Below, piece by piece: positions 19,410-23,309 of a stretch of DNA of 64,000 nt. Position numbers and translations under genes: made by a program. Every line of letters begins with the position of its first letter. Position 1 is the stretch's first letter. The notes beneath the pieces are model-generated. The model was given only the letters and a program-made list of their open reading frames with translations, had not been told where the DNA came from and ran no database searches. The DNA lies in sequence record MF327004; one strand, given 5' to 3'. This DNA comes from Shigella phage Sf17.

Positions 19410-19790
19410 TTATAAACCCATGCAGTGACGATTTTCAATAAAGTATTGAACACCTTTGAAAGACTCACGCATAAAATTATCTTTCACATCTTCTACAGTT
19501 TCGATACCTTTACTATCAAGAAGGTCAACGTTCTGAGTAACCATCTCATCTGCTAATCTGTCATAGTAATCTCCCATAAAATGGTAGTTGTAGTCAACCA
19601 TCTTATCAGTCATTTCTTGAACAGTCTGAGCAGATAACGGTTTAGTTAACTCTCCAGCATTTGATGCAATTTTCTGTACAATCTTACAAGATTCTAAAGC
19701 AACACCACTAAAGTTTGCTTCAGGCATCTTCATAGCTGCTGCACTAAAACTCATACCAAGAGCAATGATACCAACAAGTAACTTTTTCAT
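19410..19790 (-). CDS. secreted/periplasmic protein
   Basis: 126 aa; N-terminal signal-peptide-like MKKLLVGIIALGMSFSAAA. Confidence 0.45.
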   Translation of the reverse strand: MKKLLVGIIALGMSFSAAAMKMPEANFSGVALESCKIVQKIASNAGELTKPLSAQTVQEMTDKMVDYNYHFMGDYYDRLADEMVTQNVDLLDSKGIETVEDVKDNFMRESFKGVQYFIENRHCMGL

Positions 19791-19906
19791 AACTACCTCC
19801 TATATAAAATTTTGTATACATTTGAGTATAAAAATAAGCTATAACACCTGACTTGTCAACAGATTTTATAGCTTATTTGGCAGATTTTTTATAAGGCTAC
19901 TGCCAT

Positions 19907-19965
19907 CCTTCCGCACCCGACCTGACCTCGCCCAACCTTACCTGACTGAACCACACCCGACCAAA
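19907..19965. repeat. phased pentanucleotide (NNACC)n tract 1
   Basis: About 11 consecutive in-phase pentamers, + strand nearly G-free; left flank GGCTACTGCCATCC. Confidence 0.7.
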
Positions 19966-20004
19966 CATCACTTAAAAACCCTTTTCAAAGACTCTTAAGT
20001 GATG
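19966..20004. other. hairpin A (CATCACTTAA - 19 nt - TTAAGTGATG)
   Basis: Perfect 10-bp inverted repeat capping tract 1; second copy at 21499-21537. Confidence 0.6.
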
Positions 20005-20033
20005 TAATCGAATTTTTATGTAGCTCCGATTAA

Positions 20034-20084
20034 CTACCCATACCTAACCCCACCTTGCCACACCGAACCAGACCAAACCCAGCC
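20034..20084. repeat. phased pentanucleotide (NNACC)n tract 2
   Basis: About 10 in-phase pentamers (ctacc catac ctaac cccac ...); left flank GTAGCTCCGATTAACTACCC. Confidence 0.7.
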
Positions 20085-20104
20085 TCATTAAAAGACCCTT
20101 TTAA

Positions 20105-20136
20105 AGACCTTTTAAAAAGGAGCCTCCGAAGAGGCT
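20105..20136 (-). terminator. rho-independent terminator of - strand cassette (UUCG-tetraloop hairpin)
   Basis: On - strand: AGCCTC-TTCG-GAGGCT followed by CCTTTTTAAAAGG, 12 nt downstream of the stop of ORF 20148-20588. Confidence 0.5.
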
Positions 20137-20147
20137 ACCTAGTCAAC

Positions 20148-20588
20148 TTAGAAAGGTTTTCTACGTTGCTTGTTAATGTTAGCTTTCATGGCAGCTAAAT
20201 GGTTTTGCTGTTCAATCAGTCGTGAACGTTCTTGATGACTAAGTACCATAGTGTTCACATTCTCAATCGCTTGAGTGGCTTGTTTTAAAGCACGACCAAT
20301 CTTACTAGACATTTTACGTTTTGCAATAGTTGCTTGATGTTTAGGTTCCACCACACGATAACCAACACCCATTGAAGTGACCAGATAAATCTTCTCTTCT
20401 TTAAGAAGCTTCTCAATAAACTTCTCAAGTCGATTTAGGCGTGTAAGTGCGTAAGCTTTCATTTCATCTTCGTACTTAACAATGTCACCTTGATAAGTCG
20501 GCTTCACAATACCTAAGAAGGTGTCCATCTCAGAGTGTGATACAGTATCACCGTAACTGAACTTTGCTGCTAATGCTTTTGTATTCAT
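20148..20588 (-). CDS. hypothetical protein
   Basis: 146-aa ORF, ATG at 20586-20588, basic C-terminus (NKQRRKPF); no recognisable motif. Confidence 0.45.
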   Translation of the reverse strand: MNTKALAAKFSYGDTVSHSEMDTFLGIVKPTYQGDIVKYEDEMKAYALTRLNRLEKFIEKLLKEEKIYLVTSMGVGYRVVEPKHQATIAKRKMSSKIGRALKQATQAIENVNTMVLSHQERSRLIEQQNHLAAMKANINKQRRKPF

Positions 20589-20590
20589 AA

Positions 20591-21178
20591 TTAAACATTA
20601 CCTTCTGAAATAACTTCTACAGAAAAACGACCAAAGCGTGGACGCCAATCACCTACACCACAAAGGTTGCCAGCATTTTCCAGAACCATCAAGAGTTCTT
20701 CTTTGGTAATTTGTTCTTCATCGAACATCAAACCAAACTCTACAGACCAGTCACGGAAGATTGGACGGTAGCTCATAACTCGTGCTGTGCCAATCTTAAC
20801 AGACTTCGCATAGATAAAGTCTTGGTTCTTAGCTAGTTCTTGTGGGTTTGCTGGACAGTTCTTAATAGTCATTGGGAAGACTACATCTGTCAGCATAATG
20901 GCTCGGTCAATTACCTTACCAAGTTTGTTGAGTTTTGCACCAGACTTGATACAAGCCTCAATCATCTCACCGTTCATAACAAAACCTAGTTGCTCGTCGT
21001 AGTAACAAGAGGTTACCAGTTGACTCTCTGCTAAGAGAGCGTAGTCTTCGTCAGTCTTTTTACGTTTACTAGACAGAGACTTGTGATACTTTGTCAGAGG
21101 ATTTAATGGGTCTGACAGAGTATCAGCATGGCTCAGGAAAGGACGAGTGCCAGTGATTTTGATATTTAACAGTTTCAT
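20591..21178 (-). CDS. hypothetical protein
   Basis: ORF-track start 21193 is GTG; ATG at 21176-21178 with GGAG 9 nt upstream is more likely; about 195 aa; no recognisable motif. Confidence 0.45.
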
Positions 21179-21284
21179 AGCATTTAGCTCCACACTTTAG
21201 TTGATTGTTAAGTTGTTTGTAAAGAACCCTCAACAGAAGACTCTTTAGAAACTTGGTAGATTTTTAACGTGGCTACTACCATCC

Positions 21285-21346
21285 ACCCTTACCTCACTTT
21301 ACCTAACCTGACCTTACCAGACCCAACCGGACACTACCCTACCTAG
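21285..21346. repeat. phased pentanucleotide (ACCNN)n tract 3
   Basis: In-phase pentamers accta acctg acctt accag accca accgg acact accct accta; left flank GGCTACTACCATCC. Confidence 0.7.
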
Positions 21347-21417
21347 CGAAACCTCATTAAAAGACCCTTTTAAAGACCTTTTAAAAAGGTGAGTCTCATT
21401 TTAATGTAGCTGAGACT

Positions 21418-21497
21418 AACTACCCTCACCAAACCGGACCAGACCCAACCCAGCCATACCAGACCATACCACACCCAACCGAACCGAACCTTACCGA
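21418..21497. repeat. phased pentanucleotide (NNACC)n tract 4
   Basis: 15 consecutive in-phase pentamers taccc tcacc aaacc ggacc agacc caacc cagcc atacc agacc atacc acacc caacc gaacc gaacc ttacc. Confidence 0.75.
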
Positions 21498-21498
21498 G

Positions 21499-21537
21499 CA
21501 TCACTTAAAAACCCTCTTAAAAGACTCTTAAGTGATG
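21499..21537. other. hairpin A, second copy
   Basis: CATCACTTAA - 19 nt - TTAAGTGATG, near-identical to 19966-20004. Confidence 0.6.
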
Positions 21538-21758
21538 CTGGTGAGTACCCGTTGGTTTATGCTGCTCAGTATACTCACCAAATTTTCTATGTCAACAACT
21601 TTATATTAAAAATTCTCTGACTACTGCATTTACTACAAATGATAACAGAGTAAGGGCTAAGGCTGATTTGTATGTTATGCTTAACAGTTTACTTATGAAG
21701 TAAGATAATGATAAAACAACAAAAACAAACAGGATAATTGCGCTAAACATGCTAACCT

Positions 21759-22859
21759 CTATTCATAATCTCGTATAACAAGCCCAACAGGGAACTGTAA
21801 AGACCCCTTACGAGTCATCTTCTGGAACTGAACCGTTAAAGGCTTCCCGATAAACTCTTCAGGATGTTCAGCAAGATACTTTTTCTTCTCGTGTGTAGTT
21901 TTCCATGAAACATCTACAAAGACGTTAGGAAGAGTCTCTACAACGAACTTACCATGACCACGTTTATCAGTCTTTACACCAGTTACTTTAAATTCCTGTG
22001 TGTGCATCTTCTTGTGCTTAATCAGGAAGTAAGAGCGATGACCACACTCATAGAACGAATCTGGTGAGATTGACCGATACATTGCCCCTTCAAACTTGAG
22101 TTTAACCCAGTTGTCATGAGCATTATCAAATTCTTCCCAAGAGTTAACACGGATTGTCTGAACAGGTACAACCCTGCAAGCATCACCGAGTTCAACGATT
22201 GGTGAATTATCAATAACTTCACGACGCTCAGGCCAAGATTTAGTCTTGTCACAGATATCATACCAGTAGAATTTAAGAAGGTGACGGTCTGGATTGTCAG
22301 CATTCTTAATCATAGATACAATATCTTCCAAGTCCCAACCATGAGCATAAATCTCCCCGTCGAAATCCTCAACATCTTTGTGCAGTTTCAGCATAAGAAG
22401 AACATCAGGAATCAACTCTACAGGAATGTTGTATACCGTGTTCTCACGAGAATATGCCGTAAAACTTTCTGAGTCAGCATCTCTTGAAATCCTGCAACGA
22501 ACACCATCAAGTTTAGGTTGAGCATCGGCAGGGAATACCAGATACTTCTTGTGACTTATCTTGGAAGCATCCTGAGCAAGCTGTACACCAACCTTCTCAA
22601 CATTCTCTGCTTCAGATTTTGTGTAAGCATATCCTTTACGGTCAACCTGCTTCTTGTACTTAGCAGCAACTTCAAAGAGAGCTTGCTGTTCAGCATTACG
22701 CTCATTCTTTTTACCGATGTTCTTAGGTTCTGCTGTGTACTCTTCAAACATCATCTTGCCATTTTCTTTACCATAAGTTGTGACGACTTTATCACCTACA
22801 GCAACACATGACCAGACGTTGAAAGAACCATCTTTATTTTGTTTGTACAGAATTGTCAT
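21759..22859 (-). CDS. ATP-dependent DNA ligase
   Basis: 366 aa; nucleotidyltransferase motif I PKLDGVRC (KxDG), motif III FDGEIYA, downstream LKFEGAMYR and KHKK; T7-type ligase size. Confidence 0.75.
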   Translation of the reverse strand: MTILYKQNKDGSFNVWSCVAVGDKVVTTYGKENGKMMFEEYTAEPKNIGKKNERNAEQQALFEVAAKYKKQVDRKGYAYTKSEAENVEKVGVQLAQDASKISHKKYLVFPADAQPKLDGVRCRISRDADSESFTAYSRENTVYNIPVELIPDVLLMLKLHKDVEDFDGEIYAHGWDLEDIVSMIKNADNPDRHLLKFYWYDICDKTKSWPERREVIDNSPIVELGDACRVVPVQTIRVNSWEEFDNAHDNWVKLKFEGAMYRSISPDSFYECGHRSYFLIKHKKMHTQEFKVTGVKTDKRGHGKFVVETLPNVFVDVSWKTTHEKKKYLAEHPEEFIGKPLTVQFQKMTRKGSLQFPVGLVIRDYE

Positions 22860-23113
22860 TTACGTTTCCCACCAATTTCTACATCAATAACTTGTGTGTC
22901 TCCACAAACATCAAACTTATGAATGATATTCTCTACAGTGTAAGTCCAACCATCAATCCTTACCCATTCACCTTCTCGTGGCACTATTGGGTTACGTTGT
23001 GCTACAGTTGTAGTTGAGTGAACAACGTCATACTTATAGATAAAATTTACCAGAACCTGCATATCAATATCCTCCATCAAAAACTGTGGTGTGTGACTGA
23101 CTATTCTTCCCAT
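22856..23113 (-). CDS. hypothetical protein
   Basis: 85-aa ORF, start overlaps ligase stop. Confidence 0.4.
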   Translation of the reverse strand: MGRIVSHTPQFLMEDIDMQVLVNFIYKYDVVHSTTTVAQRNPIVPREGEWVRIDGWTYTVENIIHKFDVCGDTQVIDVEIGGKRK

Positions 23114-23309
23114 ACTTGTAAGAAGTTGTAGTCTGAGAATTTGGGCAGCGAACTACAATAACATCCCTGCTAATGGCATCACCATTAAGCTTATAAATCT
23201 TGCAGTCTTGCATTTCTGGAGGAAGTCTGTAAGAGGCATCCTTATTCTCATAAGAAGGGTTGCACCCCACCAGTAAGACTACTAAAGCTGGTATCAATAA
23301 TTTTAACAT
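23064..23309 (-). CDS. putative lipoprotein
   Basis: 81 aa; MLKLLIPALVVLLVGC with lipobox LVGC then Cys-containing mature part. Confidence 0.5.
   Translation of the reverse strand: MLKLLIPALVVLLVGCNPSYENKDASYRLPPEMQDCKIYKLNGDAISRDVIVVRCPNSQTTTSYKYGKNSQSHTTVFDGGY

Follow-up and report, generated by a model that had tools for sequence, protein, structure and literature searches.

What do two small exported proteins do among the replication genes of a virulent phage? The question is raised by 64,000 nucleotides of DNA from Shigella phage Sf17 (sequence record MF327004), analysed here at its full length and called the window, in which two - strand open reading frames (ORFs), 23064-23309 and 19410-19790, had been described from the letters alone as encoding a lipoprotein and a secreted protein; we refer to them as LIPO and SEC, respectively. 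Our analysis leaves little doubt that the two are unrelated, non-structural proteins, predicted to be exported to the envelope of the infected cell. Both ORFs of this preliminary description are real genes at the stated - strand coordinates, annotated in relatives as well, and both are under purifying selection, with a ratio of non-synonymous to synonymous substitution rates (dN/dS) of about 0.06-0.07. They are additional members of families that are already known but uncharacterised.

A megablast search with positions 19000-24000 returned Shigella phage Sf18 as the closest match (99.5% over the full length), together with about 258 Felix O1-like records of the Ounavirinae, the closest of them in the genus Mooglevirus; the source phage is a Felix O1-like Mooglevirus. 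LIPO and SEC lie in a - strand block at ~16-27 kb that holds thymidylate synthase, dihydrofolate reductase, a helix-turn-helix regulator, DNA ligase and DNA polymerase, with many small genes interspersed. Both are labelled 'hypothetical protein' in Sf18 and in Citrobacter phage Moogle. Scans of eight proteins of the region against Pfam, NCBIfam and PADLOC gave no match above threshold, and PHROGs matches for the region's proteins were to families of 'unknown function' only.

Export signals of LIPO and SEC

The features that define the two genes are as follows.

23064-23309, - strand: LIPO, gene of an 81-residue prolipoprotein (probable DUF4884; phrog_902); Sf18 gp20, Moogle gp40, Felix O1 ORF91.
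23265-23309, - strand: predicted LIPO signal peptide, residues 1-15 (MLKLLIPALVVLLVG), with lipobox L13-V14-G15 and then Cys16.
23262-23264, - strand: Cys16 codon; this residue would form the diacylglyceryl-modified N-terminus of mature LIPO and is followed by Asn at +2.
19410-19790, - strand: SEC, gene of a 126-residue predicted secreted protein (phrog_4332); Sf18 gp15, Moogle gp45, Felix O1 ORF87, SUSP1 agp037.
19734-19790, - strand: predicted Sec-type signal peptide of SEC, residues 1-19, with signal peptidase I cleavage between A17-A18-A19 and M20.

LIPO is preceded by a GAGG Shine-Dalgarno sequence 7 nt upstream and begins MLKLLIPALVVLLVG-C16-NPSYENKD...; its mature form has 66 residues, an isoelectric point (pI) of 7.9, three Cys and four Pro. 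Lipoprotein precursors follow a PROSITE-type rule, with Lys or Arg in the first 7 residues, an uncharged h-region, a lipobox [LVI][ASTVI][GAS]-C and the Cys at 15-35. LIPO conforms to this rule (Lys in the first 7 residues, [AGS]-C, Cys16), as do 5 of the 1424 start/ORF combinations in the window and 0-4 per ~450 in shuffled sequence, so the lipobox motif alone is weak evidence. The predicted lipoprotein identity, which the preliminary description had read from the lipobox, is decided instead by conservation of the lipid Cys, which is kept in 160 of the 161 members of a family alignment, down to ~31% identity, in signal peptides whose sequence varies freely. The strict lipobox expression is passed by 143 of 150 representatives, the remaining 7 being near-variants or fragments, and the Pfam lipid-attachment model LPAM_1 matches 28 family members. 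The same division is seen against Moogle, where the signal peptide of the window has a dN of 0.66 with hydrophobicity and lipobox retained, and the mature part a dN of 0.027 and a dN/dS of 0.06. An AlphaFold2 (AF2) model built from a 12-sequence alignment suggested 4-5 short strands; its confidence was poor (predicted local distance difference test, pLDDT, 58.6), and the model was therefore excluded from the fold search.

SEC has a GGAGG Shine-Dalgarno sequence at 19800-19796 and begins MKK-LLVGIIALGMSFS-AAA, followed after the predicted cut by MKMPEANF... Its signal peptide can be parsed as MKK / LLVGIIALGMSF / S-A-A-A / M, giving a positive n-region, a 12-residue h-region (within the Sec-type range of 7-15) and small neutral residues at -3 and -1. 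The signal peptide proposed earlier holds up across the family: n-region, h-region and -3/-1 pattern are kept in all homologues (34-98% identity), with the small residues at the same aligned position in the triplets AAA, AVA, VKA, TSA and AYA, and VNA in Felix O1. The only Cys residues, C35 and C123, are invariant in the homologues, which fits an oxidising compartment. Mature SEC is an acidic protein of 107 residues (pI 4.7; dN/dS 0.07, window against Moogle), for which an AF2 model with a mean pLDDT of 88 shows three helices (30-44, 54-85 and 93-120) after a disordered stretch at residues 1-16. Searching PDB sequences with the SEC profile found nothing.

Family distribution and dispensability

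A profile search of 1.84 billion representatives found at least 631 clusters (50% identity) related to LIPO at E <= 1e-3, 85 of them at E <= 1e-10, with members nearly all of 75-130 residues. In the 161-member alignment, C36 is present in 161 and C55 in 160 sequences, and P30, D35, R54, P56, N57, S58, T60, T62, G67 and K68 are further conserved positions. PHROG 902, of unknown function, matches LIPO with E 5e-17. A precomputed Pfam index lists PF16225 for LIPO and all 50 relatives, and one look-up in it names PF16225 DUF4884 for LIPO, unmarked, which corresponds to E <= 1e-5; the family and LIPO have size, lipobox and two further Cys in common. From these sequence comparisons, LIPO is probably a DUF4884 protein. 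DUF4884 also appears, as an annotation, in Bacteroides thetaiotaomicron and in a T1-like coliphage (PMC8931616 and PMC12210894, respectively), and no functional study was found in the literature on DUF4884, phage lipoproteins, or Felix O1 and Mooglevirus lipoproteins.

With tblastn, LIPO was detected in 572 phage records. Carriers include essentially all Felixounavirus and Mooglevirus genomes and 291 Vibrio phages of ~114 kb (T5-like Demerecviridae), as well as jumbo phages (Serratia BF, Sharanji and phAPEC6), a Certrevirus and Acinetobacter phages; an Aeromonas phage, Acinetobacter elements of 111 kb and a contig of 419 kb also carry cluster members. Relatives come from phages of Vibrio, Acinetobacter, Aeromonas, Serratia and Enterobacter, T5-like, rV5-like and jumbo phages among them, with genomes of ~50-420 kb. 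Mature LIPO is 87% identical to its Felix O1 counterpart, and the domain is nearly unchanged among Shigella, Citrobacter, E. coli and Salmonella phages.

Every distant homologue that we translated has a lipobox, followed by a variable residue. The residue after the lipid Cys sets membrane sorting, Asn leading to the outer membrane and Asp to inner-membrane retention. This +2 position is Asn in LIPO, Asp in Serratia BF, an Enterobacter phage and Sharanji, Glu in Vibrio and Thr in Acinetobacter phages, and it varies (D, E, S, T, N, G) even within enterobacterial phages, which argues against an obligatory outer-membrane partner. At 26 loci from nine or more phage groups we found no conserved partner gene near LIPO beyond close relatives, and when 185,579 genomes of bacteria and archaea were scanned for the pattern of a narrower alignment, the family proved near-absent from bacteria, with a single locus in Hylemonella. 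SUSP1, another member of the Ounavirinae, has no LIPO at the syntenic position. Together, the occurrence, neighbour, bacterial-genome and SUSP1 comparisons indicate that LIPO is a stand-alone, phage-restricted accessory gene. As a separate observation, two genes downstream of its DUF4884 homologue Sharanji encodes another predicted lipoprotein, unrelated to the first (MIKKLLTVVFVFCTMFLTA-C; several Cys; locus L007, 4572-4847).

SEC was detected in 257 phage records, all of them Ounavirinae except for a few whose names suggest mislabelling. It has diverged more than any other conserved gene of the block, with 34% identity to Felix O1 and 60% to SUSP1, whereas the polymerase and the genes that flank SEC share 66-92% identity with Felix O1. 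The divergence of SEC follows phage genus rather than host species.

Published data on relatives bear on when the two proteins are made and whether they are needed. The Felix O1 counterparts of SEC and LIPO are ORF87 and ORF91, and ORF90 is a 68-residue gene between LIPO and the ligase. A reverse transcription PCR survey of Felix O1 placed ORFs 83, 84, 87, 88, 89, 90, 93 and 96 in the 'middle' class, peaking at 25 min, and did not list ORF91; the polymerase of the same block was transcribed within 5 min (PMC3185647). The 'early block' of the preliminary description is thus apt for the polymerase that the block includes, but not for the SEC homologue and its neighbours. In SUSP1, the SEC homologue AVU07_agp037 (27119-27499) scored 'Not Fit' in a CRISPRi-ART screen and is therefore dispensable on laboratory E. 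coli; the ligase scored likewise (PMC11879866). Since the SEC homologue is dispensable in SUSP1 and LIPO is absent from the SUSP1 locus, both genes appear to be accessory rather than core.

A rival reading is host take-over or counter-defence in the envelope, in which one or both proteins would inhibit a periplasmic or membrane factor of the host that impairs infection, rather than acting on other phages. Candidate targets would be a nuclease, a protease, an envelope-stress sensor, vesiculation or a membrane-acting defence system. The fast divergence of SEC between genera (34-60%) is typical of a host-parasite arms race, some lineages lack the genes or can do without them in the laboratory, and the LIPO family is stand-alone and phage-restricted, like many anti-defence genes. 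The divergence of SEC, however, tracks phage genus and not host species, no candidate target was identified, and PADLOC gave no match, in a library of defence rather than anti-defence proteins. We consider counter-defence somewhat unlikely.

The VIPR cassette between the two genes

The preliminary description had placed the SEC gene directly beside the first of several pentamer arrays. The adjacency is real: the nearest array, tract D below, is separated from the SEC start by 125 nt on the upstream side, a stretch that contains a sigma-70-like promoter. The arrays belong to a complete VIPR locus (19905-21500, - strand) that lies between the two exported-protein genes and comprises vipr, a vap1-type gene and four vrRNA tracts.

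21601-21750, - strand: TM49, an unannotated 49-residue gene with two hydrophobic segments, directly after the ligase, with a GAGG Shine-Dalgarno sequence (phrog_22006).
21568-21595, - strand: sigma-70-like promoter, TTGACA-16-TATACT; its equivalent directly precedes SEC in the relative L014, and here it leads into the VIPR cassette.
21423-21495, - strand: vrRNA tract A, 15 GGY-NN units.
21291-21343, - strand: vrRNA tract B, GGY-NN repeat.
20591-21178, - strand: vipr, RAMP-like Vipr protein of 195 residues.
20148-20588, - strand: vap1-type accessory gene, 146 residues (phrog_5926), followed by an intrinsic terminator at 20121-20136.
20042-20084, - strand: vrRNA tract C, GGY-NN repeat.
19915-19962, - strand: vrRNA tract D, GGY-NN repeat.
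19831-19859, - strand: sigma-70-like promoter, TTGACA-17-TATTTT, directly ahead of SEC, where the VIPR cassette has its 3' edge.

The Vipr protein matches PDB entry 36pp, 'SUSP1 Vipr protein', over residues 1-195 with E 1.2e-129. The GGY-NN pattern has 27 matches, every one on the - strand and none elsewhere in the window; 100 shuffles gave 0. The four tracts have 10-15 units each, with conserved leaders and tails: a ~33-nt motif (TTAAGAGTCTTT.AA.AGGGT.TTTAA.TGA.G) stands before each tract and a hairpin-like tail after it. Rfam gave no match on the intergenic arrays. Published VIPR loci consist of vipr, vap and vrRNAs, with two protein genes per locus and vrRNAs of 9-16 alternating GGY/NN units flanking vipr, and have been described as an RNA-guided weapon that is aimed at competing mobile elements and silences transcription (bioRxiv 10.64898/2026.04.26.720920). 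On the strength of these matches, the 'pentamer arrays' are identified as the vrRNAs of a VIPR cassette, a system already described in 2026 bioRxiv preprints, and the most striking element between the two genes is thus one that the literature already holds. When the four vrRNAs were paired under the published 1-nt-skip rule, no good target was found within the 64-kb window, the best matches having 30% mismatches; this absence of self-targets fits targeting of other elements.

The closest comparison is the type II VIPR system of SUSP1 (locus L010), whose Vipr is 99% and whose vap1-type protein is 97% identical to those of the window. The layouts differ, with two vrRNAs upstream and two downstream of vipr in the window, and one and three in SUSP1. 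Because the flanking SEC and ligase are only 60% and 92% identical between the same two genomes, the cassette appears to have been exchanged recently between Ounavirinae genera.

LIPO and SEC are not VIPR components, since VIPR has two protein genes per locus and relatives without vipr and vap, Felix O1 and L014, retain both. In relatives without the cassette, SEC follows the ligase or TM49 directly, and L014 has the order ligase, TM49, promoter (TTGACA-16-TATACT), SEC. The adjacency of SEC and the arrays is therefore incidental and non-functional, set by insertion of the cassette between ligase/TM49 and SEC, and a false lead towards a functional tie of SEC to the arrays is removed. The second promoter sequence, TTGACA-17-TATTTT, also precedes Felix O1 ORF87. 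Between ligase and ORF87, Felix O1 carries both promoters and a single degenerate vrRNA-like unit (L011 3740-3880, - strand; ~NC_005282 57739-57879), whose leader, GGT-rich tract and tail suggest a vrRNA left as an orphan or remnant. TM49 is probably a small membrane protein; it is 80-100% conserved in Moogleviruses, and no counterpart turned up in Felix O1 or SUSP1.

Possible roles in the envelope and known systems

The predicted fates of the two proteins can be set out as follows. The 81-residue LIPO precursor would be exported by Sec, modified with diacylglyceryl at Cys16 by Lgt, cleaved by signal peptidase II and N-acylated by Lnt, leaving a 66-residue lipid-anchored protein with a ~10-residue tether and a small β-rich domain that would carry one disulfide (C36-C55) and the conserved loops VVRCPNSxTTT and GK. 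Its Asn at +2 predicts that LIPO is passed to Lol and placed on the inner leaflet of the outer membrane. SEC would be cut by signal peptidase I after Ala19 and become a soluble, acidic, 107-residue three-helix bundle in the periplasm, probably stapled by C35-C123. Both would be expressed from the replication-gene block and would act on the envelope of the infected cell to protect the ongoing infection, LIPO by binding a periplasmic target widely conserved in Gram-negative hosts, or a generic feature of incoming tails, and SEC by binding a partner that differs between phage genera.

A function in envelope protection, most plausibly as post-adsorption periplasmic superinfection exclusion or as envelope stabilisation, is the reading we tentatively propose, as a possibility rather than a probability. 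An accessory role in the periplasm, directed at a component of the host or of an invader, and not a structural, replicative or receptor-masking one, is suggested because the proteins are small, disulfide-containing, exported and made before lysis, SEC is dispensable and LIPO is absent from a related genus. The same role is suggested because LIPO is stand-alone, confined to phages and variable at +2, its domain is conserved in phages with unrelated adsorption devices, and SEC evolves fast.

Several points weigh against this proposal. Neither LIPO nor SEC has a homology or fold match to any characterised exclusion protein, and the fold of LIPO is not established, its structure model being poor. 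The signal-peptide calls are rule-based. A live hmmscan against a local Pfam-A copy never returned PF16225 for LIPO or for 145 relatives, though the model may be absent from that copy or altered in it. The CRISPRi-ART screen has false negatives, since the ligase scored 'Not Fit' too, and with a single laboratory host a factor for counter-defence, lysis timing or host range would be just as likely to score this way.

Control of lysis timing would assign SEC, and perhaps LIPO or TM49, the part of a periplasmic antiholin-like protein or of a spanin or muralytic regulator, in the manner of T4 RI, which binds the periplasmic domain of the holin T in lysis inhibition. The phage carries rIIA/rIIB-type genes, a putative holin homologue at 15423-15797 and the gene of an exported Vs.1-like SLT protein, and SEC, like RI, is small, helical, Cys-containing, periplasmic by prediction and dispensable in the laboratory, with an N-terminal hydrophobic export signal. 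Precautions against lysis inhibition were taken in work on Mooglevirus Sf14 (PMC11936213), although no demonstration of lysis inhibition in this phage group was found in the literature. SEC has, however, no sequence relation to RI (hhalign probability 0.2%, the RI query agreeing with PDB 6PSK), a signal-anchor-release domain stands in RI where SEC has a canonical AXA cleavage site, and the putative holin and the spanins are ~4 kb and 35 kb away from SEC, respectively. We regard a role in lysis timing as distinctly unlikely.

The homologue of the SUSP1 'putative holin' (15423-15797, + strand) has one N-terminal transmembrane domain and a C-terminal coiled-coil domain of ~95 residues predicted to be periplasmic, a topology that could accommodate a periplasmic regulator. 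The 'putative lysin' at 52817-53362 (+ strand) is a T4 Vs.1 homologue with a weak SLT (lytic transglycosylase) match and a signal sequence (MKKFVLGLCLFFTAHLATA); it occurs in about 1900 phage records and may matter for periplasmic regulators. The spanins are the following pair.

54567-54911, + strand: i-spanin, member of the genuine spanin pair.
54808-55077, + strand: o-spanin, overlapping the i-spanin, with its own lipobox from ATG 54808.

In the o-spanin frame, the upstream ATG at 54808 supplies a proper signal peptide and lipobox (MKKLRQSLLMIVLLSLMSG-C). The Sf19 o-spanin is annotated from a GTG at the equivalent of 54880, which removes the lipobox, and the annotated start in relatives is probably wrong.

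As a small lipoprotein of outer-membrane type with periplasmic Cys, LIPO might itself be taken for an Rz1-like o-spanin that disrupts the outer membrane at lysis. This candidate was rejected, and is effectively refuted, by the genuine pair above, by the replication-block setting of LIPO with no adjacent type II membrane partner, and by a mature sequence that is not proline-rich (4 of 66 residues).

The preliminary description had suggested that the lipoprotein blocks the phage's own receptor, as do the lipoproteins of the Llp, Cor and Rtp45 type, and the comparison with these proteins does not favour that suggestion. In masking of this kind, LIPO on the inner leaflet of the outer membrane would bind the phage's own receptor from the periplasmic side, close its binding site allosterically and stop re-adsorption to infected cells and debris. 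Llp of T5, Cor (family of T1, phi80 and N15) and Rtp45 of phage Rtp are small disulfide-containing lipoproteins of virulent phages, made before lysis and placed on the periplasmic side of the outer membrane (PMC9586334, PMC12685063); LIPO shares their size (~6-7 kDa), a single predicted disulfide and a phage of virulent habit, and its Asn at +2 predicts outer-membrane sorting. The likeness ends with the signal peptide: aligned by hhalign, the 161-sequence LIPO family matches T5 Llp only over residues 1-18 and T1 Cor only over residues 1-20, that is, over signal peptide and lipobox (both sequences being taken from their genome records), and an hmmsearch match to Cor (E 4.6e-4) is driven by the signal peptide. 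The mature domains appear unrelated.

Complexes of FhuA with Llp (PMC9586334) and of LptDE with Rtp45 (PDB entry 9RPS; PMC12685063) are described as solved. A PDB-wide profile search with LIPO at E <= 10 returned no superinfection exclusion lipoprotein, neither Llp nor Rtp45, the Rtp45 negative being limited in that the presence of 9RPS in the searched copy was not confirmed. By these sequence comparisons, LIPO is not assigned to the Llp, Cor, Rtp45 or Rz1 families.

Setting and receptor differ as well. The genes of Llp, Cor and Rtp45 adjoin a receptor-binding gene, as llp does oad/pb5 in T5 (PMC9586334), whereas LIPO is flanked by the polymerase and ligase region, and the tail-fibre genes (11543-15142) are ~8 kb away on the opposite (+) strand. 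The known proteins act on a protein receptor (FhuA, LptD), whereas Moogleviruses are reported to use, typically, lipopolysaccharide (PMC12671091), which has no periplasmic face to bind. Unlike the known proteins, the LIPO domain recurs across phages of Vibrio, Acinetobacter and Aeromonas and in jumbo phages with unrelated receptors and adsorption devices, and the Asp at +2 of several enterobacterial homologues points to retention in the inner membrane. That LIPO masks a protein receptor is unlikely, receptor masking of the whole Llp/Cor/Rtp45 kind very improbable, and either is less likely than post-adsorption periplasmic exclusion or envelope stabilisation.

For the annotation of Felix O1-like phages, the gain is a routine refinement, in which two 'hypothetical proteins' are now labelled as a predicted DUF4884 lipoprotein and a predicted periplasmic three-helix protein. 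A wider conjecture, which we think fairly unlikely, is that DUF4884 lipoproteins form an unrecognised class of receptor-independent envelope factors in hundreds of virulent lineages, binding a universal periplasmic structure and shutting DNA entry to later phages, with SEC and TM49 as lineage-specific partners. The domain would then be tethered to either membrane, and its candidate targets would be peptidoglycan or a cell-wall enzyme, a trans-envelope machine, or the incoming tail tip. If DUF4884 has a general function, it would be a widespread means for virulent phages to modify the Gram-negative envelope. It would then bear on phage cocktails, whose therapeutic phages might exclude one another; phages like Felix O1 and Moogle are employed against Salmonella and Shigella.

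Post-adsorption exclusion, the mode we tentatively propose for LIPO and SEC, has its model in T4, a virulent myovirus whose early proteins Spackle and Imm are exported and shut out a superinfecting phage once it has adsorbed, acting in the periplasm or at the inner membrane. SEC shows no sequence relation to the T4 proteins compared, being rejected by hhalign both as an RI-like and as a Spackle-like protein; against Spackle, the probability was 3.9% and confined to the signal peptide, and the Spackle structure was not among the SEC fold matches listed. The resemblance is one of design and, as an analogy only, extends from the mode of action proposed for both proteins to the form of SEC itself, which, like Spackle, would be a small helical periplasmic protein released from a cleaved signal peptide.

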